Shown here: one piece after another, positions 1 to 61,960 of the stretch
How positions within the stretch are numbered: position 1 is the first letter of the stretch
Layout of the letters: each line of letters begins with the position of its first letter
DNA from: Ginglymostoma cirratum
Lineage: Eukaryota
DNA length: 64,000 nt
Reading direction: 5' to 3'
Assembly: GCA_024137785.1 (NCBI GenBank)
Contig: JAHRHZ010000046.1
Coordinates: forward strand, 31,917,940-31,981,939
Made by a program: the position numbers and the translations under genes
Notes under the pieces: model-generated
The model's input: only the letters and a program-made list of their open reading frames with translations
Told to the model about the DNA's origin: nothing
Database searches by the model: none

Positions 1-104
1 AAACCTTCATTTCTGATGAAGGGTTTAGGCCCGAAACGTCAAGTTTTCCTGCTCCTATGATGCTGCTTGACCTGCTGTGTTCATCCAGCCCCATGCTTGT
101 TATC
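1..104 (+). mobile_element. Penelope-like element terminal repeat (pLTR) fragment
   Basis: Reads ctgatgaagggtttaggcccgaaacgtc...tgctgcttgacctgctgtgttcatccagc...gttatc. The same family occurs at 26057 and 37501, and a related copy at 7636-7793 is joined to an ORF remnant. Confidence 0.7.
9..44 (+). ncRNA. Minimal type I hammerhead ribozyme motif, intact core
   Basis: CTGATGA (13-19); helix II GGGT/GCCC with TTAG loop (21-32); GAAA (33-36); palindromic ACGT; GTC cleavage triplet (38-40); helix I ATTT(9-12)/AAGT(41-44). Confidence 0.7.
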
Positions 105-109
105 TCGTA

Positions 110-954
110 TCAATTATGTGCCTTGTTAGACTTGGCGAAGGAAACGTAAGAGTTTTGTCTCCATGAAGCCACCCACCCAGCTCCCAGCAGTCCAAGCAAG
201 GGTTCTTCAACCCAACTGGTAACTGCTCGTGCCTTCCCCAATTTAGAATAATTATTTATTCTGACAGTTCCAAGGCTGCTTTCTATTTCGAGGGATTGCT
301 GTGGCCCCTGACCTGCCTCAATAACATCCAAGTGGTCCAGCTGCATTCGGAACCTGCTCATCCCAGGAAAGGTACAGGTGATTAATTCAGAGGCGTCCGA
401 AGGATAAGTAGCTGCTCCCAGTCTGGCTCTTGACAAAGGTGAGCTCGAAACACTCTTTTGGTCCCAAAGCTTGCGAATAATCTGCTCTTTGAGACTGCAA
501 AGTAAAGCATGAATAACTGTAGCTGAAACTTCACAAACAGGCAGTGCACATCATGACGGGGATTTTCCGAGGGGCGGTGATCCCACACATTCGGACTCCT
601 TTCTTATGAGAGAAATGAGCTCTGCATTTCTGAGAGGAGATGCCACTCAGATATCCTTCAGAAATGCAGAACCGTACTTCTATTCTGACTGTTCCTTCAT
701 CACGCCGAACTGTCAGAGAAGGCAAAGCGGTCTCCTTTTCACAGGGGTCAGTTGCCGTATCCTGACATTAAAAGACCCTTACCGGCACACAAGTACATTC
801 ATCAGGGCTCTTATAGAAGGCCGGGGTTGAAGTCGCACGCTTGCTTGTGCACCCTGACAGGATCCTGTGGGTGCTTCTTTAGAGGTGGATATGCACCTGA
901 GGATTTTCAACACTGGCCTCCTTGAGCTAAAAGTTTGTTGGGTGTTGCTGGTGC
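110..954 (-). other. Unidentified CpG-rich coding-like segment
   Basis: A single minus-strand frame runs from an AG acceptor at 955-956 to the stop at 110 with five internal stops and a ~147-codon open stretch. About 22 CpG in 121-840 versus about 6 in 961-1680. No recognised homolog. Confidence 0.3.
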
Positions 955-7249: not shown

Positions 7250-7793
7250 GTCAGCAATTGGCTGAGGTCAAGTGTACACATATGACGTCTCATGGCAGTG
7301 ATCATGGATCGCAGCATGCGACGGGAACAGCAGCCCAAGGAACGTTGTATGTCCTGGAGATACTTGTAATCCTAGGTGGATTCAAAACACGAAGGGTGAA
7401 ACCTGAGTTGAAATCTATGTGAGGTAGTACTGAGTCACTGGCAGTCGCTGAGAAAGGAAACATGGCTGTGAATGTGAGTTATGGCAAACACCTTGTCTAA
7501 CACCGGCAGTGAATGGAAAGCAACAAAAATGTACCCTGTGAAAGAGACGACAAGAATTCCTGTCGTAGGGAAGAGTAAAATTTCTTCAGGGTGAGCATTC
7601 CTTGAAGAGATGTGGCAGTCAATTTAACACAAAGTAGGAGCAAATTATTGCAGATGCTGGAATCTGTACTGAAAACAAAAAATGATGGGGATCACAGCAG
7701 ATCAGGCAGCATTCATGGAGAGAAAGCAAGTTAATGATTTGAGTCTAGATGATGCTTCATCAGAGCTTCCAGCATCTGCAATAATTTGCTCCT
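7250..7793 (-). mobile_element. Penelope-like element 5' fragment: pLTR with degenerate hammerhead, ORF N-terminal remnant and 5' inverted duplication
   Basis: Perfect 27-bp inverted repeat 7636-7662/7767-7793. Minus strand has a CTGATGA...gactcAAA hammerhead relic, then an ORF remnant HSHVSFLSDC..FQLRFHPSCFEST*DYKYLQDIQR..CSRRMLRS. Confidence 0.6.
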
Positions 7794-10479: not shown

Positions 10480-10860
10480 CGCTGACCAGAAATTGAACTG
10501 GACTATCCACATAAATACAGTGGCTATAACTGCAGGTGAGGCAAGTAACTTACCTTCTTATTCCCCAAAGCCTACTTTCAACCACCTACAAGGCACAAGT
10601 TCGGAGTGTGATGGAATACTTCTCACTTGCCTCGGTGTGCAGTAACAAAAACATTCAAGAAGCTTGGCACCATCCAGACATCCAGATCAAGGAAGCCTGC
10701 TTGATTGGCACCAGATCCACAAATATCCATTCCCTCCACCACTAATGCTCAGTAGCAGAAGTGTGTACCATCTACAAGAAGCATTTTCGAAATTCACCAA
10801 GGCTCCCTTCCGAACCCATGAACACTACTGTCTAGAAGAGCAAGGGCAGCAGTTACACGA
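10480..10860 (+). mobile_element. LINE (CR1/L2 group) RT C-terminal fragment
   Basis: DQKLNWTIHINTVA and STTYKAQVRSVMEY translations match the element at 20700-21510. Confidence 0.7.
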
Positions 10861-13221: not shown

Positions 13222-13400
13222 GAACTGAAACAAACAGAGAGAATGCTGCAGAAATCTGGCAGTATTTGTGGAAAGAGAAACATGTTTAATGTTTTGTATC
13301 CTGGATGACTCTACTTCAGGACTTGAAACATTAACTCTTTCTCTCTCCACAGATGCTGCCAGGTCTGCTGTGTTTGTCCAGCATTTTCAATATTTTTCTT
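13222..13400. mobile_element. Penelope-derived fold-back (two inverted pLTR halves)
   Basis: gaatgctgcagaaatctggcagtatttgtggaaagagaaa is mirrored by tttctctctccacagatgctgccaggtctgctg. A degenerate hammerhead relic lies at the centre. Confidence 0.6.
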
Positions 13401-18385: not shown

Positions 18386-18502
18386 AAACTGCAGATGCTG
18401 AAGACCTAAAACAAAAGCAGAGGATGCTGGAGAAACTCAGCACATCTGTGGACAAAGAAATAGAGTTAATGTTTCGAGTCCAGTGACTAGGACCGGATCA
18501 AA
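18386..18502 (-). mobile_element. Penelope-derived pLTR fragment
   Basis: gatgctggagaaactcagc...gagttaatgtttcgagtccagtgact. Flanked by a possible TSD ttaatatg (18378-18385, 18503-18510). Confidence 0.55.
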
Positions 18503-20699: not shown

Positions 20700-21510
20700 T
20701 TTGTAGGATGTAGGCGTCGCTGGATGGCCAGCATTTCTTGCCCATCCCTAGTTGCCCTTGAGAAGGTGGTGGTGAGCTGCCTTCTTGAACCGCTGCAGTC
20801 CACCTGCTGCAGGTTTACCCACAATGCCAATAGGGAGGGAATTCCAGAATTTTGACCCAGTGACACTGAAGGAATGGCAATGGATTTCCAAGTCAGGATG
20901 GTGAGTGGGTTGGAGGGAAACTTGGAGATGGTGATATTCCCTATGTCTGCTGCCTGTGTCCCTCTAGATGGAAGTGGTTGTGGGTTTGGAAGGTGCTGTC
21001 TGAGGATCTTTGGTGAATTTCTGCTGCGCGTCTTGTAGATAGTATACACTGCAGCTACTCAGCGTTGGTGATGGAGAGAGTGGATGCTTGTGGATGTTGT
21101 GCCAATTAAGTAGGCTGCTTCGTCCTGGGTGGTATCAAGCTTCTTGAGTGTTGTTGGGGCTGCAGTTATCCAGGAAAGTGGGGAGTATTCCATCACACTC
21201 CTGACTTGTACCTTGGTGGACAGGCTTTGAGGAGTCAGGAGGTGAATTACTTGACACAGTATTCCTGGCTTCTGACCTGCTCTTGTAGCCATTGCGTTCA
21301 AGTGGTGAGCGCATTCGAGTTTCTGGTCAATGATAACCCCCAGTATGGTGATAATGGGGGGATTCAGTGATGGTAACACCATTGAATGTCAAGGCCTGGT
21401 GGTTAGATTGTCTCTTATTGGTGATGGTTATAGCCTGGCATTTGAGTGGCGTGAATGTCACTTGCCACTTGTCAGCCCAAGCTTGGATATTGTCTAGATC
21501 CTGCTGCACC
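20700..21510 (-). mobile_element. LINE (CR1/L2 group) 3' portion
   Basis: MQQDLDNIQAWADKWQVTF and ILGVIIDQKL...QVRSVMEYSPLSW..LKKLDTTQ form the RT thumb region. The 3' UTR ends near 20700. Confidence 0.85.
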
Positions 21511-26056: not shown

Positions 26057-26143
26057 AAGGGTTTAGGCCCGAAACGTCAAGTTTTCCTGCTCCTATGATG
26101 CTGCTTGACCTGCTGTGTTCATCCAGCCCCATGCTTGTTATCC
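26057..26143 (+). mobile_element. 3' end of Penelope-type insertion (body lies in the gap)
   Basis: Identical to 19-104 over 86 nt. 14-bp TSD tgcattatattcta at 25643-25656 and 26144-26157. Confidence 0.8.
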
Positions 26144-29259: not shown

Positions 29260-29735
29260 GAGGACGACGACAACATTTGGGCATTGATTCTGCTGTGCCA
29301 TTCAACAAGTTTATGGCTGACATGAAAGGTTCAACTCCACTTTCCTGCCTTTTCCCATCAGCCTGGATTCTGTTATTGATTTTAAAAAACTGTCTATCTC
29401 AGCCTTGAATATACTGAACGACCCAACCTTAACAGCCCTCTGTGGTAAAGAATTCCACAGATTCTCTACCCTCAGAGGGAAGAAATGCTTCCTCATCTCT
29501 GTCCTATATGGGTGACTCCTTACTCTAAGATTATACAGTTCTGAGGAAGGGTCGCCAGACCCGAAACATTAATGCGGATTTCTTTTCACAGATGCTGCCA
29601 GACCTGCTGAGCTTTTCCAGCAATTTATATTTTTATGTCTAAGATTATACTGTTTGGTCCTAGACTCTCCTACAAAACGAGACAATCTATCTGTGTCTAT
29701 CCTGTCAAACCCCTTAAAAATCTTCTATGTTTCAA
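29260..29735 (-). mobile_element. CR1-type LINE 3' end
   Basis: ORF 29311-29496 MRKHFFPLRVENLWNSLPQRAV..FKAEIDSFL. Confidence 0.85.
29537..29637 (+). mobile_element. 101-bp Penelope-derived insertion carrying a hammerhead motif
   Basis: 13-bp TSD tctaagattatac (29524-29536, 29638-29650). Motif: CTGAGGA, GGGTC-gcca-GACCC, GAAA, CATT. Confidence 0.8.
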
Positions 29736-33360: not shown

Positions 33361-34354
33361 TTTTTCTTTCTTCCATGTCACAATTCTTTGCCTCACAATT
33401 TACTTGAGCTGGCAGTTTGAAAAGTTGATTCAGTCCAGATTGGGATGTGGAAACTGAAGCAGCCTGCTTCAATTTACTGATATTAAGCCAAAGAAAATTA
33501 CAGCTTCTCCACGATTCAGTGGCTTATAGGGAATTGTACAGAGTAGTAAGATCTTTGGAATTGAAAGAGGAGATTGAGCAGTAGAATGAAGCACATACTG
33601 GCACAGGAGGCGATGTAATGTCAACAGTGTAAGTGTCAAAAATGGAACAATGAGAGATCAATGCCACAGAGATGGACATGAAAGAAAGCTCTTTCAGGAG
33701 AATTAAGTCTTCCAAAGTACAATACAGTGCAAAGGATGAGGGTGATAACAAGTAGTACAGAAAGCTGTCTTCATGGACACAAAATGTTTTTAAGAACTTT
33801 CCAGTGATTGTAAGGCTTTGTTGATAGCTTGTATTAAGAAACATTTGGCTTTGTATTGAAAACGTGACGTGGCGGGTTGTTGGGAGTTGAGGTTCGGAGA
33901 AACTTCTGAATTACTGTAACAGAGTTTGTGTTTCATTAGCAGACAGAGTCCAACATAATTAATTTGCTGGAATATTATTCAATGTATGTGAATTGAGAAG
34001 CCTGATTTCTAATTCCCTCGCACACATAACTAACCCCTGCACATTAAGAGCAGTATAATTACAAGCTTGAGGTTTTTCATTTGAAGGTGTAAGCTGCACC
34101 AGAGACAGATTTTATGAAGAGGTTCTCTGATCAGATTACTGATTTATGAAATTTGTTCATCCCACAACCAGATTGAAGACATTGTATATTATTAAGTGGT
34201 TATTTAAATGCTTGAGAAAACCAAAAGAGCAACAGTGAATGCAAACTGCAGTTGTTTAGCTGTCCATTACCATTAGTAAATGTGTACCTCACAGGTTTAA
34301 CTGGAGAAAACAGCTCCTAACTACAATTTTGATTTGTTAAAAAAGTTATTGCAT

Positions 34355-34790
34355 AGCATGTAGGTGTTGCTGCCGCCAATTATTTTGCTCATTCTAATTG
34401 CCCTTGTGATGGTGGTGGTGAGCTATCTTCTTGAACTGCAGCAGCCAATCTGGTATAGATGCACAAAGAGAATTCTGAATCAATGACCCAAGACTGTAAA
34501 ATAATGTTGACATCGTTCCAAACAGGGATGTTGTTAGACTTGAAGGGAAACTTGCAGGTAGTGTTGTTTCGATGCCTTTGTTACCCTTGACTTTCTAAGG
34601 TGCTGTCAAAAGGAGCCTTGGGAAGTTGCTGCAATGCATCTTGCCTATGGTACACACAAGTGCCACTGTGCCTTGGAGGATGGAATGAATGTTCATGTTG
34701 GCGGATGAGGTGTCAACCAAGCTGTGCTCGATTGTTTTGAGATTTTTGCAGCTGCTAGGTCCTGATTTAGTCAGCAAGGGAAGTATTCTT
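34355..34790 (-). mobile_element. LINE 3' UTR fragment (family of 20700-21510)
   Basis: taattgcccttgtgatggtggtggtgagct...cttgaactgcagcag. Confidence 0.65.
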
Positions 34791-36870: not shown

Positions 36871-37550
36871 AAATATTTGTCAATTCAGCATTCACAGAGG
36901 ATCCCATGTTCCTTGTTAATCCATGTCCCACTCTGATATATGCTCACCCACTCCCCTTCATCACTAATTCACTTTGACACTAGCAAGACCATGTCCTGAA
37001 ATATATAAGTCTAGAATCCTTCAGCCTCCTCAGCGAAAATGTATCAGCATCTAATCCTGAAGCTTAGCAATTTGAAATTTGAACACAAGCTGTTGCAGAT
37101 GCTTTATGCATGTATTCAAAACACACAGGGCCTCACCCATCATGCAGAAATCTTGCTTCACACTTTTCAACTTCCCCTGAATCTAAATGAAATTGTTTTT
37201 ACCTTAGAGACTGAAGCCCACAAAGAATAATTTTCAATGAACACTGTTAGAAGATTAAAGTCAGATTTAAAATCTCTGCAAAGCAGAATTCTATATCTCT
37301 TAGCCCTTTCTACTTCACTGCTCAAACTATTAATTTGCTATCAACCAATATTGAACAATAATCTAACTGATATAGGTAGGCCGCAGCCAATTAAATAATA
37401 ACTAATTGGATCACCTACGTCAGTGGTTTCCAACCAGCGTGCTGTGGCAAGGTGAGAAATATGCTGCAGAATGTTTGGGAAGCAGCACCAGTTTACATGG
37501 TAACACAGTGTGGAGCTGGAGAAGCATAGCAGGCATCAGAGAAGCAGGAA

Positions 37551-37586
37551 AGTTGACGTTTCGGGTTGGGACCCTTCTTCAGAAGC
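37551..37586 (-). ncRNA. Minimal type I hammerhead motif within a Penelope-derived fragment (37501-37625)
   Basis: Minus strand gcttCTGAAGAa-GGGT-ccca-ACCC-GAAAcgTC-aact. Core, helix II and GUC triplet are intact; helix I has one mismatch. Confidence 0.6.
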
Positions 37587-37854
37587 TCTTCTCTGACTCC
37601 AGCATCAACAGTTCTTATTATCTCTGAGTGAGTTATAACACTACTTTACGTGAACTTTGAGTCTGTGTCTGTGCTTCTGATCTCTTCCTCCAGATTATTA
37701 AAGGCTGTACCCACTGACAGCAGGCAGTCCTATCCTCTGCGTATGCGTAAGCCTCCAGTGCTGTGCACGTGTAGACCTTCAATACCACCCATGCACCATA
37801 CAGATATTCAGCACCACATGTATGTGGCCATTCATCTGTGCTGTAGAATTGTTA

Positions 37855-38974: not shown

Positions 38975-39098
38975 CAAAGAAATGTGGATGCTGCAAATCT
39001 GAAACAAAAATAAAGTGCTGGAAAAACAGAGCAGAACTGGCGGTATCTGTGGAGAAAACAGAGTTAACGTTTTAATCCCAGCATCCCTTCTTCAGAAC
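38975..39098 (-). mobile_element. Penelope-derived pLTR fragment with degenerate hammerhead
   Basis: Minus strand gttCTGAAGAaggg...AAAcgTTaactc...ccacagataccgccag. Confidence 0.6.
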
Positions 39099-43432: not shown

Positions 43433-46347
43433 ATTGCCTGTTCTCTATGGAGTTCTACCACAACTTGCTCCAAAAAAATCTCGTAGACATCCCATGAATT
43501 CCTTTTCTTGGGATCGGCTACCAACCTGATTTAAGACTGAGGGTGTTGCACGTAAATGCACACAGTATAAGAAACAAGGTAAATGTGCCAATCTTGTGGC
43601 CAAGATTGAAAGTGGCAGGAACAATGTTGTGGGTATCACAGAGATGTGGCTGCAAGGGGATCAAGGCTGGGAACTAAATATCCAAGGATACACATCCAAT
43701 CGAAAAGACAGACAGATGGGCAGAAGGGCAGTGTTGCCTTGTTAGTAAGGAATTTAATTAAATTTACAGCAAGAAGAACTGTAGAGTTGGAAGGCGTAAA
43801 ATCCATGTGGGTAGAGTTGAGGAACTACAACGTCAAAAAGACATTGATAGTAGTTATGTACAGTCCTCCTAACAGTATTCAGGACGTGAGGCACAAAATA
43901 AATCAGGAGACAGAAAATGCATATAAAAAAGACACCATGACAACAATCATGGGAAACTTTGATATGCAGGTGGACTGTGAAAATCAGGTTGGTAGCAGAT
44001 CCCAAGAAAAGGAGTTCATAGGATGTCTACGAGATGTTTTTGGAGCAGATTGTGGTAGAACTCAAGAGAGAACAGGCAATTCAGGGTTTGTTGATGTGTA
44101 ATGAGGCAGACTCAATTAGGGAGCTGAAAGTGAAGGAACCCCGACGGGGCTGTGACCATAATATGATAGAATTCATCCTGCAGTTTGAGAGGGAGAAGCT
44201 GGATTCAGATGTAACAGTATTACAACTGAGTAAAGGTAACTACAAAGACACGTGGGAGGAGCTGGTCAGAGTTGACGGGAAGGGGAGCTTAGTCGGGAAG
44301 ACAGTTCGGCAGTAAAAGCAAGAGTTTCTGGGGCTAATTTGGGAGGAACAGCAGAAATTCATCCAAAGGAAGAAGCAGCACTTTGAGGGGAAGATGAAGC
44401 AACCATGGCTAACCAGAGAAGTCAGACAGCATAAAAGCAAAAGAAAAAGCATACATTGTGGTGAAGATTAGTGGGAAGCTAAAGGATTGAGAAGGCTTGA
44501 AAAACCAGCAGAGGATAACTTAAAAAATCAGGGAGTGGAAGAAGATAAAATATTGAGAGCTAGCTAGCTCGTAATATTAAATAACATTGCAAGAGTTTTT
44601 TTAAGATATCTAAAGGTAAGAGAGAGGCAAGAGTGGACATTGGACTGTTGGAAAATGAGGCTGGAGAAGTCATAATAGGGAACACAGAAATGGCAGTGGA
44701 ACTGAATCAATACTTTGCAGTGGGAGACACTGCAGCATACCAGAACTTCAAGAGAATCAGGGGTCAGTGGTGAACGCATCATTACGGAGGTGCCAGGGAA
44801 GCTGAAAAGGGGTCTCTGAAGGTGAATCAATCACCCAAATCAGATGGCTACATCCCAGGGTTTGAAGGAGGTAGCTGAGGAGATTGTAAAGGCATTGCTT
44901 GTGATCTTTCAGGAATCACTGGAATCAGAGTGGGTCCCAGAGGTTTGGAAAATAGCTAATGTAACACCCCTGTTTAAGAAAGGACAGGGGCAGAAGTCAG
45001 TAAATAATAAGCCCGTTAGCCTGACCTCGTTCATTGGTAAGATTTTACAGCCCAATATTAACAATGAGAACTGAGGGTGTTTGGAAGTGCATGGTAGAGT
45101 AGGGTGGCAGTAGGGTGGCATCAGCATGGCATCATCAAGGGGATGCCATACCTGACAAATCTGTTCGAGTTCTTTCAGAAGGTAACAACAAAGTTAGATA
45201 AAGGAGAAACGGTAGAGTGATCTATTTGGATTTCCAGATAACCTTTGATAAGCTGTCACACAGGAGGCTGCTGAGTAAGACAAGGGTACATGGTGTTAGG
45301 GGCAAGGTACTGGCATGAAGAGAGGATTGGCTGACTGGCAGAAGGCAGACAGCAGCTTTAAAAAGGTCTTTTTCAGGTTGGCTGCTAGTGACTAGTGGAG
45401 TTTGGCAGGGGTCAGTGTTGGGACTACAACTAGTCACGTTATATACGATGAAGGAATTGAGGTATTATTGCTAAATTTGTAGATGACATAAAGATAGGCG
45501 GAGGGACAGGTAGTGTTGAGGAAGCAGGGAAGCTGCAGAAGGACATGGACAGGCTAAGGGAGTGGGCAAAGAAGTGGCAGATAGAATACAATGTAGGAAA
45601 GTTTGAGGTTATGCACCTTGGTAGGAAGAATAGAATGGTAGACTGTTTTAGAATGGGGAAAGGATTTGGAAAACTGAAGCAGAAAGGGACTTCAGCGTCC
45701 CAGTTCAGGATTCTCTTACGATTAACTTGCAGGTTCGGATGGCAGTTAGGAAGGCAAATGCAATGCTAGCATTCATTTTGAAAGAATTAGAATACGAGAG
45801 CAGAGATATACTGTTGAGGCTGTATAAGGCTCTGGTCAGACTGCATTTTGAACATTGTGAGCAGCTTTGAGCCTTGAATCTAAGGAAGGATACGCTGGCT
45901 TTGGACAGTGTCCAGAGAAGGTTTACAAGAATGATGCTCGGAATGAAGGGCTTGTCATTTGAAGACTCTGGGTCTGTACTTGCTTGAGTTCAGAAGGATG
46001 AGGGGGATCTCATTTAAACCGACTGAACATTGGGAGGTGGACATGGAGATGACTAAGACCCAAGGACACAGCCTCTGAGAGAAGGGATGACCCTTTAGAA
46101 CTGAGAGGAGGAGAAATTACTTCAGCCAGAGACTGGTAAATTTGTGGAATGCACTGCTGCAGAAGGTTGTGGAGGCCAAGTCATTGAATATCTAAGGCAG
46201 AGATAGATAGGTTCTTGGTTAGTAAGGGGATCAAGGATTATGGGGAGAAGTCAAGGAAATGGGTTGAGAAATATGTCAGCCACGATTTAATGGAGGAGCT
46301 GACTCCATGGGCCAAATGGCCTCATTATGCTCCTGTGGTCTATGGGT
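43433..46347 (+). mobile_element. CR1-type LINE with near-complete decayed ORF2 (APE endonuclease + RT) and an inverted 5' segment
   Basis: VVGITEMWL, GSVALLV, MYSPPN, IMGNFD, GCDHNMI (endonuclease); WKIANVTPLFKKG, KPVSLTS, YLDFQ.TFD, KFVDDIKIG (RT). Probable TSD atctatacatgcat/atctatacatacat at 43408-43421 and 46348-46361. Confidence 0.92.
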
Positions 46348-46566: not shown

Positions 46567-47320
46567 AATTCATTCATGGGATGTGACTTCACTATCTGGG
46601 CCATCATTTATTGCCCATTCTTAAATGCCCTTAACAAGCTGTCTCCTTGAACCATTGCAGTATATTTGGTGTTGGTCAACCCAATGCTGTTGAGGAGGAA
46701 ATTCGAGGATTTTAACCCTGAAACACTGATATAGAATGGCAATGTATTTCTAAGTCAGGATGGGGAGTGGTGCAGGTGGTGCTGTTCCCGTGTATCCGCT
46801 GCAACTGTCCTTATAAATGGTAGTGGTTATGGGATTGGAAAGAGCTGCCTGAGGAGCTTTCAGGATGTGCAGTACGCCTTGCAGATAGTACACACTGCTG
46901 CTAGTGAACATTAATGAGTAAGGGAGTGAATGTTTGTGGATGCTTTGATCTGGATGGTATTAGGCTTCTCCTTGAGTGTTGTACGAGCTAGACATCCAGA
47001 TGAGTGTGGAATTCATCACACTCCATACTCGAACATTGTCGATGGACAAGAGGTTTTGGGGAGGCAGGAGGTGAATAATTTACTGCTGGATTCCCCACCT
47101 CTGCCTTGCTCTATAGCCACTATATTTGTATATGCAATTCAGTTCTGTTTCTGGTCAATAGTAATCCCAGAATATTGAAAGTAGTGGTTTCAGCAATGAC
47201 CATGCCAGTGAATGTCAAGGGGCAATAGTAAGATTCTGTATTGTTGGAGGTAGTCATTCCCTGGCACTTGTGTGGTGCAAATGTTGCTTGTCAGCCTGAG
47301 CGCAGATACTGTCCAGGTCT
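46567..47320 (-). mobile_element. LINE 3' portion (family of 20700-21510)
   Basis: ttcatgggatgtgac...ttgcccattcttaaatgccct...cctggcacttgtgtggtgcaaatgtt. Confidence 0.75.
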
Positions 47321-50030
47321 TGAAGAGGAGGATAATGAATCTCATTGTATTACATCACTCCAAATTTCTCTCCACTTAGTAAATAGTTTTTGTAACCTTA
47401 AATGCCCTTATTACCCATTATCACCCTTTCTCTGCTCCCCTTCAAAGGCTGATTCTCACAGGTCAAGATGATCTAGACACTGACTGGACATCTTGCTGAA
47501 GCTCAACACGAAGGTAATGGTGGTGTAATTTGTTTGTAGCACTCTGTACATCTTCCGTAGTTGTATAGATAGGACTGCCCAATGTCCTATAATAATTAGA
47601 TTCAGTGTCACTTCTTGCCTGAAGTGAGATCAATGCCTTCCTGTTTCCCCAAATGCCCTTTCAGTTGCTCTGACAGTACAATATCTTGTAATATCTATCG
47701 ACAAATAGTTCAACCTATTATTAGTGACAATGGCTTTTGAATTATTGTCCTTTAGCCAGGCTTTCAGCCATGGCTTTAAGGTCGACAGATTTTTTAACCC
47801 TGTTTTTTGAATTGAACCACATCTGCTCCTTTCTGCTCTTTTCTCCAGTTGTTTTACCTAACTGGGGGAGGAGGGGTGTGTTTTGATAGGCTATGTTTGG
47901 CCTGAGTTGTGTTCTGAGGCTGGCTCACTGGAGGTGACAGATCTAGTGAGAGAAACAGCACTGACAGTGGACCCAGCCAGTCAAAACAGTGGGGAAAGGG
48001 AATTCTGCAGAGCCCAGAGATCAAAACAGGATATCAGGAATTAAAAGTGAGTCCCTGCAGTAGAAGGAGACGACAGGCCTTTTATGAAGCAATCACCCTG
48101 TTGTGGCAGCAATGAGTCTTTGCTGATTCACAGGGCTCATTGATATGGAGCCCCATTTTAAATCAACAATTGACTAATTCAGTCCATGATCTCCCAGAGC
48201 CTGCGCCAAAAATGACCGAAGCACTGCTGCAGGAAAGTAAATGTTGATGGACTCCAGAACACTACAAAGAAAGTCTGACTGAGTCAACACCTCATAGACA
48301 ACCTGACAAATGCTCAACAGACAGGAACCACAGAACCCAATGCGCTCTTAAATCAATCATAGGCAGCACCTGTGAGGAGACTCTAGATTTCCCAACCAGG
48401 AAACATCAGATCGGTTTGATAAGGATGAGCAGGAGACCCAGGAGCTACAAAATGAGAAACAGACATTTCTGAAATAGAAGTACCAGCAAAACGCAAGGAA
48501 AAGAAAGCAGGTCTGCAGACAAAAGAAGGCCAATTTCCACCAAAAAAAAAATCAATAACCTAAGGAAGAGATGGAATAGGATGGAAAGAACACAGGAAAT
48601 CCAGCAACTCACTGTCATTGTGTTATGTCTGCATTCTTCACAGGAGTCAAACCATCTATAGTCCAAACATGCAATACCATATCTCGCTGAGATCTAAGAA
48701 CAGAGCACCTATCCTTTCAATATTCCTCTGTGACACAACGTGCTGACAATCTTTCCTGTTCCAGGAGTTCTATAAATGAGAATTTTTTTTTATTACTGAA
48801 CTTTATCAAACAGGGTGGGCACTTCATTTTTGTTGACATTTAAACTCTACCTGTATTTTTTATGTTTATAGAAAAATCATTAGTGTGTGAATAATTCATA
48901 ATCAGAAAAACAGCTGAGAGTTTGCAGTATTCAACAGAACTTTTCTGAGCCAGTTACTTCCTCCTTTTTCTCTTTTAATTACGCAGCACAAAAATATACC
49001 AAACTTCAATGGGCAGATGTCTGGGTCTCTTGTCTCCTGTGATGAAAAACTATTCATTTTGTTCAGTGCACCACTGACCACCTCAAACCCTGTTGTTGAA
49101 ACAATTTCATTACTTTATTATAGATTTTTTTGTTGTTATTCAACCAAGTTTGCAGGTACATTGGGGTGGATCAATACTTTTCAGTCTGTGATTTTCTTAC
49201 AAATTTGAAGACCTTTTCCCCTTCTCCTTTAGAAGTTATTTGCTTTGACACTTCAGTGGCATCAATACCAGAGCGCAGTGCATCACTGTATCTTGCAGTT
49301 TACCATTTGTGGTTAGCTTTCCAAATTTCTGTTGATAGGGTCAGCAGGACTCTAACTGGGAGACAATTCCCATTACATTCTTTCCAGAAATGCATCTCTC
49401 TGTGAATTCAGCAATGTAGCTAACAAGGGGATTAGTTATTGCTGCGTGGGATTTTGACATTGACCAGTGTAATTCGAGTATGTCTCTCAAGTTGTGAAAA
49501 AAAGGATGTGGTCATTGCCTTGCATGTCAATAGATGTCATTTTAGTGTCTGGTTAGATCTCTGTAACTTGGTTAATCACAGGCTAGAGCTCCATCACAGT
49601 AACCAAGCTGACTCTTGAAAATCAATGACAGCTTTGCTCATACACTTTGCTGTGAGACACATAGCTATGGACTCAAGATCCACTGCAGAACCTGAATGCA
49701 TTAACTAGATTGACGCACTGTTGAATTATTGAGGGAATGCTATTCTTTGGATAATGAATTAAACAGAAGCCCAATACAGACGGTGGTGCACATTCAGACC
49801 TGACGTGGATGTGTGAAGACAGTTTGTCCTTGTCCTTCAAACAATCAAGAAAGTTTTGATCATCCGTCTCTTAAGGGACTTGTTAACAATAGTTAAAATT
49901 GCTGCAATTACAATCTTAACAATTAACACGACACTAGAAATTCTAGATCACATTAAATTGAGAATGGCAGCATGCATTTCGAGTAATTCAAAACAAATTG
50001 TGTGTCTGATAATAAAATGACTGCAACACT

Positions 50031-61329: not shown

Positions 61330-61960
61330 TTAGTGGCAGCAATCTTGTCCCTGAATCTGATAATTATAGATTTTTGCTCTGTACTAGAAAGTTTAGAATA
61401 TAATCTCAGCCAGCATTGAAGGCAATGTAGCACTGTTAGCAGTGCTGTCTTTCAGATGAGATGTTAAACCAAGATTGCGTCTGCACTGTCAGATGGATGT
61501 AGAACATCCCAAACAAATTTGAGCGCGCACGCCAAGGAAGCTCTCACAATGTTCTCTGCATCAGTATTCCTCAACCAATGTCACTAAAGCAGGAAAATAA
61601 AACAATGAATGACAGATGCTCAAGATCTGAACTAAACAAAAGCTGGAGAAACTCAGCAAGTCTGACAGCGTGTGGGGAGAAAGCAGAGTTATCATTCCTA
61701 GTCCAATGACCCATAACTGTATTCTCTCCACAGATGCTGCCAGACCCGCTGAATTTCTCCAGTGATTCCTGTTTTTGTTTGTTTCACTAAAGCAGGTCGT
61801 GGGATCAGTTATTTAATTGCAATTAGTGGGGAGTTTAGTGCATGAAAATTAGCAGTTACACTTTCTACAAAACAACAGCAAATACACTTCACTGTAATTT
61901 AATTTGTTGCAGTGTGTTTTGGGAAGCCTTAAGATCATGAATGGCACTAGACAATTTCAA
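61330..61960 (+). mobile_element. Deu-domain SINE interrupted by a Penelope-derived fold-back (61594-61783)
   Basis: SINE core gtgctgtctttcagatgagatgttaaacc. The insert is flanked by a perfect 13-bp TSD tcactaaagcagg (61581-61593, 61784-61796). Confidence 0.8.

Follow-up and report, generated by a model that had tools for sequence, protein, structure and literature searches.

A minimal hammerhead motif carried in the terminal repeats of a young and highly abundant Penelope-like element of Ginglymostoma cirratum

A 64,000-nucleotide stretch of Ginglymostoma cirratum DNA (contig JAHRHZ010000046.1 of assembly GCA_024137785.1, forward-strand positions 31,917,940 to 31,981,939; hereafter the window) begins with what resembles a hammerhead ribozyme. 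This locus raises the question of which element carries the motif, how its copies arise, and whether the ribozyme acts in their formation or in host transcripts. The plus-strand segment 9-44, which belongs to a young Penelope-like element (PLE) family, follows the type I order CUGANGA...GAAA...UH and is a minimal type I hammerhead by sequence and descriptor match. It consists of helix I (ATTT at 9-12, AAGT at 41-44), a core made of CTGATGA at 13-19 and GAAA at 33-36, an extra A, helix II at 21-24 and 29-32 (GGGT and GCCC around a ttag loop), and then CG and TC. A palindromic ACGT spans 36-39, and cleavage is predicted after window position C40; unit position p being window position p+10, the predicted cut lies between +30 and +31. 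Every element of the complete type I core that the original prediction had described at this site, with its predicted cut after C40, was thus present.

Within the window, the bare pattern CTGATGA-N8-25-GAAA was not significant, with 2 matches against 1.82 expected. The full descriptor with paired helices matched 2 sites (13 and 29541, both on the plus strand) and none in each of 40 shuffles. The Rfam hammerhead models, proposed in the original prediction as a check, did not recover the motif: none of the 9 Rfam matches obtained in the window at E≤10 was a hammerhead. Beside this absent covariance-model match, the motif at 9-44 has no stable helix III, and its positions 15.2-16.2 are palindromic. 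They read CG in 132 of 152 descriptor matches and CA or TG, which are CpG-type changes, in 18 more. The unpaired base between 9 and 10.1 is A20, and the G10.1-C11.1 pair is G21-C32, a pair that was invariant in 10/10 hand-picked variants. We rejected the possibility that ATTT is a mere junction artefact, as it is native to the full-length element.

Minimal hammerheads (min-HHRs) were described in the terminal repeats (pLTRs) of metazoan PLEs by Cervera and De la Pena (PMC4209133), and dimer cleavage of PLE hammerheads is treated in the same study and in a review (PMC6765202). All four non-random traits listed in the available part of PMC4209133 were found here. The likeness extends to the CUGANGA/GAAA/UH core, the extra base between 9 and 10.1, the G10.1-C11.1 pair, the short helix I, a palindromic 15.2-16.2 whose CG matches the supplement's fish rows, the location in pLTRs, and the mass dispersal of single motifs in several families. 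Conversely, helix II has 4-5 bp here, unlike the 7-8 bp of the Schistosoma min-HHR in that source. Every sequence feature testable here places the motif at 9-44 among the min-HHRs carried by metazoan PLE pLTRs. The searchable supplement of PMC4209133 gave no match to 'shark', and another supplement file may list more species.

The parent element was visible in twenty longer stretches. At locus L070, a 130-nt unit lies on either side of a 1049-codon open frame (1037 aa when counted from the ATG), whose product matches RVT_1 (32.6 bits) and, at its C terminus, GIY-YIG (23.4 bits), both above the Pfam gathering cut-off. This protein also contains a DKG motif and a CX4CXXC linker between the reverse transcriptase (RT) and the endonuclease. 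In two loci the 130-nt unit runs into the ORF start; the ATG lies at +169, downstream of the ribozyme and of both clusters of 3' ends described below. Direct or inverted pLTRs, partial tandems and a 30-40-bp tail were present, as in EN+ PLEs. The hammerhead makes up the 5' portion of the pLTR in a young, autonomous EN+ PLE. Since the same 130-nt unit flanks an intact RT and GIY-YIG ORF, the Penelope origin and the minimal-hammerhead identity advanced in the original prediction are both upheld.

A search of the PDB with the PLE protein returned 0 matches. Its motifs suggest that the element likely belongs to the Neptune clade, the linker being also common to Nematis and Naiad in the available text of PMC8557442. 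The portions at hand of two studies of EN+ Neptune PLEs (Craig et al. 2021, PMC8557442; Arkhipova et al. 2013, PMC3846280) report the same type of linker (CX2-5CxxC) and the DKG motif, as well as partial tandems, inverted 5' copies, a one-sided tail, assembly trouble and solo pLTRs. Poseidon of Anolis carolinensis, PAc, as presented in the accessible part of Frangieh et al. 2024 (PMC11167929), likewise combines an RT with a C-terminal GIY-YIG domain. Unlike PAc, the protein described here has the Neptune-type Cys linker; furthermore, in PAc the start of the ORF falls within the ribozyme and the priming sites fall within the ORF, whereas here the ribozyme and the 3'-end clusters lie upstream of the ATG.

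Several additional features were observed around these loci. At L005 and L134, young copies lie beside or inside older PLE ORF remnants that are 33-53% identical to the intact protein, which hints at nesting. Three open frames of 284-324 codons were found downstream of a PLE copy (L066:3929-7001). The pyrimidine-rich 3' UTR in L070 carries an opposite-strand AATAAA and an acceptor-like TTTCAG, located some 25-35 bases upstream of the 4404 unit; RNA depth falls steeply over this stretch of the UTR, which could end or splice host transcripts.

Young intact cores numbered 46,336 in the 4.36-Gb genome, and a further 32,702 cores are intact but carry a different base at position 7, with 0 in the reversed control in both cases. 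The genome thus holds at least 79,038 intact cores, compared with approximately 4,000 in coelacanth and 9,000 in Xenopus according to the available part of PMC4209133. A 30-mer of the unit had 58,970 exact genome matches. The best 40 genome matches to window positions 1-110 were 98-100% identical, and young copies were 97-100% identical to the autonomous pLTR with both their 5' and 3' ends variable. N runs, often 400 long, lie between inverted halves and adjoin 17 of 30 young copies (L001-L030), so the genome counts are lower bounds. Such palindromic insertions seem to be a main cause of assembly gaps. In a blind sample of eighteen 10-kb stretches, 12 were all N, and the remaining 6 supplied the density of 15 matches in 59.2 kb. 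Another minimal-hammerhead family, unrelated to this one, was seen at L118, L155 and L170 (4 descriptor matches); its helix I is self-complementary (TGCA/TGCA or nearly so) and its helix II has 5-7 bp.

A profile built from genomic copies gave 11 matches in the window, grouped into 9 insertions, where about 8 copies in 64 kb had been estimated. Penelope-type copies were confirmed at the sites listed in the original prediction, which missed a head-to-head pair at 61613-61781. Its statement that pairing and core are kept was correct between family consensuses and incorrect for most individual window copies: both core boxes were kept in only 3 of the 11 profile matches (9-44, 29537-29573 and 37551-37586), and only 9-44 is complete.

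The first insertion (8-107, plus strand) is a short pLTR copy that begins at the 5'-end cluster of the family and stops at the shorter preferred 3' end (unit position 97). It is preceded by a likely remnant of an inverted partner copy (1-7, minus strand), and bases 4-11 pair with 15-22, which is predicted to block the core. Another young plus-strand copy, at 26057-26142, is cut by a 400-N gap and equals 19-104 at 86/86 bases. We rejected an assembly duplicate of the first copy because this one has a 14-bp target duplication of its own (25644 and 26144) and is therefore a separate insertion. The older-family pLTR at 29537-29642 (plus strand, 13-bp target duplication) has a 5-bp helix II and a G at position 7, and has lost the helix III palindrome (CA for CG). 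At 37494-37625, a minus-strand pLTR with an intact core at 37551-37586 and a helix I of only 2 bp is joined head-to-head to a plus-strand tail piece. GAAA was lost from two minus-strand copies, an old pLTR at 38981-39098 and a decayed older-family pLTR at 7647-7766, the latter with an inverted tail copy near 7756-7793, and an old minus-strand pLTR at 18388-18483 is truncated inside helix II and has no CUGANGA. Old head-to-head pairs, each involving both strands, occupy 13225-13398 and 61613-61781. In the former the cores are decayed or truncated, the relic at 13285-13320 being the minus strand with a 5'-truncated plus-strand partner; the latter has a 13-bp target duplication. Directly after the pLTR at 7647-7766, the minus strand contains a decayed 5' part of the PLE ORF (7261-7598) that includes stops and matches the intact PLE protein at 36% over 84 aa and 50% over 28 aa (E=5e-8). 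The relic at 7729-7766 thus places an older family beside an ORF remnant in the window itself.

The window also contains other repeats. An inverted repeat of 100 bp (43433-43532 and 43981-44080, 92% identical) lies beside a 163-codon open frame at 43610-44101, which we take to resemble a piece of a LINE endonuclease. Dispersed repeats at 10542-10852, 20704-21503, 34354-34722 and 46599-47322 are 66-77% alike and are probably old LINE fragments.

In the part of the report available, non-LTR retrozymes (Li et al. 2026, 10.64898/2026.07.22.740005) share with the present copies a type I hammerhead and a PLE derivation, and include one chondrichthyan case. They are tandem arrays of at least 2 consecutive ribozyme units. 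We found no tandem array of two or more ribozyme units in the window, where copies are dispersed and either solo or in inverted pairs, and we rejected a tandem retrozyme identity on this ground.

We compared 277 copies that retained the 5' part, 233 of which fell into four clusters defined by downstream sequence only. Three family consensuses had an identical core (11/11) and matched one another downstream at only 38/59 to 50/59 positions; in the fourth and oldest family (6 copies), the core matched at 10/11. Position 7 is mainly T, G or A depending on the family, position 17 is C or U, helix II has 4 or 5 bp by family, and helix I changes on both sides between families (ATTT/AAGT vs AGTT/AACT). 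Among 10 hand-picked variants, 5 of 8 pairs changed on both sides, compared with 0 of 500 shuffles, a test that is partly circular as the copies were chosen by a pairing descriptor. Compensatory changes were also seen in the clusters defined by downstream sequence only. The covariation anticipated in the original prediction was therefore found as paired changes between families, with the exception of one family (cluster 5, 12 parsed copies) in which helix I pairs poorly. That families retain the core as position 7 and both helices diverge points to selection on master elements. The excess conservation of the core that had also been anticipated held between family consensuses and failed for inserted copies of the older family, which decay like their flanks (core mismatches 39/330 vs flank 210/1887). 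In the young cluster the core was better kept (13/488 vs 384/2870), an advantage that mixed subfamilies measured against a single consensus could explain. Selection is evident from these comparisons for master elements and not for inserted copies.

To map the ends of copies, we used 30 loci picked only by unit positions 38-67. The 3' ends fell into two clusters, with 18 at 77-100, 0 at 101-123 and 12 at 124-147. These clusters are the PLE tail, which in the anole element matches two internal priming sites; the accessible part of PMC11167929 describes two preferred 3' ends approximately 35 nt apart for PAc. At the 5' side, 28 of the 30 loci were readable: 11 continued into the native 3' UTR, 7 ended at -4 to -1, none at -55 to -5, and 10 further inside. 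In a second sample, the first 100 matches listed, read by eye and obtained with a search pattern that favours copies with native UTR, 58 continued into the native 3' UTR, 20 ended at -4 to -1 and 22 inside.

Genome-wide, 2,730 matches had ends at -4 to -2. Among the first 100 matches listed for each site and read by eye, the base before these ends was G in 49/100, compared with 22/100 at +31 (Fisher p=1e-4), some of the G's coming from an inverted partner copy. Without the 11 fold-back rows in which G comes from the inverted partner, G was found in 38/89 (p=0.003). Where a junction G was accompanied by a resolved adjacent duplication, it lay outside the duplication in 5/5 loci. Furthermore, in several partial tandems (e.g. 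L057, L061 and L205) an ORF fragment is followed by an A-run, a G and then the unit, and an ORF-G-unit join occurred in 48 RNA reads. The 5'-end site at the edge of helix I presumably fits the initiator consensus. The pile-up of 5' ends at the first helix I bases, where an additional G is frequent, is likely the mark of a capped transcript start. An extra G is a mark of capped, full-length L1 insertions in the part of PMC11702581 available, and the accessible text of PMC2377424 reports an internal promoter in the Penelope element of D. virilis. The available parts of PMC8557442 and PMC3846280 do not mention 5' ends tightly clustered at the helix I edge with an added G; the second of the two reports head-to-head (inverted) pairs for PLEs. 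Such pairs, with target duplications, were common among the copies analysed here.

If the hammerhead cut the element RNA to produce the insertion template, cut RNA would be a normal intermediate and copies should begin at +31, the base after the cut. Apparent 5' ends at +31 did exceed those nearby, with 330 compared to 44 two bases upstream (+29) and 101 two bases downstream (+33), they made up 15 of the first 100 rows listed (by eye), and L068 and L140 are single clean cases. However, a matched control at +9 with the same AAG start gave 505 ends, a model of A-rich junctions made the rates at +31 and +33 alike (360 vs 311), and many of 30 inspected loci with +31 ends were inversions, A-rich joins or small indels. 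These observations leave no convincing footprint of cleavage, and we rejected the +31 ends as such a footprint. The 330 ends represent less than 1% of the 58,970 copies, and 96 of the first 100 copies listed span the cut site (by eye). The absence of a cut footprint agrees with the anole element, whose ribozyme mutants insert normally in vitro and whose ribozyme needs protein, as stated in the part of PMC11167929 available; there, uncut RNA is the main template and, as here, no ends are indicated at the cut site. Junction counts thus largely refute the cut-template route for the young family, and we regard it as very improbable.

We therefore favor, with a probability of roughly 80%, the reading in which the motif serves as minimal type I hammerhead to an EN+ PLE that is young, present in very many copies and likely of the Neptune clade, and in which the scattered 100-135-bp copies are likely short products made by the element's own RT from uncut RNA. 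Transcription would start at the first helix I bases, yielding an RNA that is presumably capped. The RT would prime at internal sites near +95 or +130, in the way demonstrated in vitro with the anole element, and run to the cap, leaving the extra G. The cDNA could then be joined to the target or to a second cDNA, giving head-to-head pairs, or jump to the 3' end of another element RNA, giving partial tandems. Judging from published relatives, cutting by the ribozyme would require either dimer formation through the ACGU palindrome or the help of the element protein; the ribozyme would be selected in master elements, inserted copies being mostly inert.

The short units could otherwise be a self-propagating non-autonomous family, SINE-like or retrozyme-like, that is transcribed from a promoter of its own and relies on the PLE protein to copy it in trans. 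This would accommodate the target duplications at solo units, the far greater depth of the unit than of the ORF in polyA RNA reads (approximately 5,500 vs 200 per direction), the internal position of PLE promoters in the accessible part of PMC2377424, and the older families, for which no intact partner was found. Nevertheless, the young copies match the autonomous pLTR at 97-100%, both of their ends vary, 58 of the first 100 copies listed extend (by eye) into the native 3' UTR, ORF remnants lie next to older families too, and the window holds no tandem array. Fixed ends and a diagnostic sequence of their own, the hallmarks of non-autonomous families, were not found in the young family. We consider this alternative unlikely, and the non-autonomous derivatives invoked in the original prediction are not needed to explain the young family.

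Copies do occur in host RNA. In one polyA RNA run with the same species label, 22,679 reads matched and 89% of them ran on into unlike sequence, with equal depth in both directions and hence no strand information; a second RNA run gave 3 reads only. Some inserted copies might thus act as ribozymes in host transcripts and be kept for that, all the more as the genome has at least 79,038 intact cores and many copies could meet in trans through ACGU. However, the older-family cores show no excess conservation over their flanks, most window copies are broken, and head-to-head pairs put their cores on opposite strands, leaving one core per transcript. Folding predictions also argue against activity of the window copy: helix II forms in 9-44 alone while the core mispairs, and with the flank included, bases 4-11 pair with 15-22 and the probability of helices I and II is ≤0.01, so that this copy is predicted to misfold through its own flank. 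A double-hammerhead dimer was predicted at -5.1 kcal/mol compared with -28.8 for the best dimer fold; an active-like dimer being far less stable than other folds, function is either weak or dependent on help. The polyA reads listed no accumulation of molecule ends, which this type of library would show poorly. Retention of inserted copies for cleavage of host transcripts therefore appears quite unlikely, and the suggestion in the original prediction that some copies may still cleave transcripts reading through them finds little support.

As a ribozyme find, the motif is ordinary, minimal hammerheads having been known in PLE repeats since 2014. A literature search limited to listings with few subscription papers showed no entry describing the young PLE family or a cap-G signature in PLEs. 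We tentatively propose, at somewhat less than even odds, that the transcript begins on the first hammerhead base and that the short copies are strong-stop-like cDNAs: the RT would prime approximately 95 or 130 nt from the capped 5' end, copy the cap as a G and jump to a polyadenylated 3' end, thereby building the pseudo-LTR. If so, the pseudo-LTR would be built by first-strand transfer like that of LTR retroelements, and the ribozyme could remove only the capped first 33 nt, acting as an off switch for translation or packaging rather than as a template maker. The young family, which has an intact ORF and tens of thousands of nearly identical insertions, offers an in vivo record of RT copying. 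This record lends support, in a second clade, to the anole finding of an uncut RNA template, and it opens two questions to testing, namely the way in which pseudo-LTRs form and the purpose of the PLE hammerhead.
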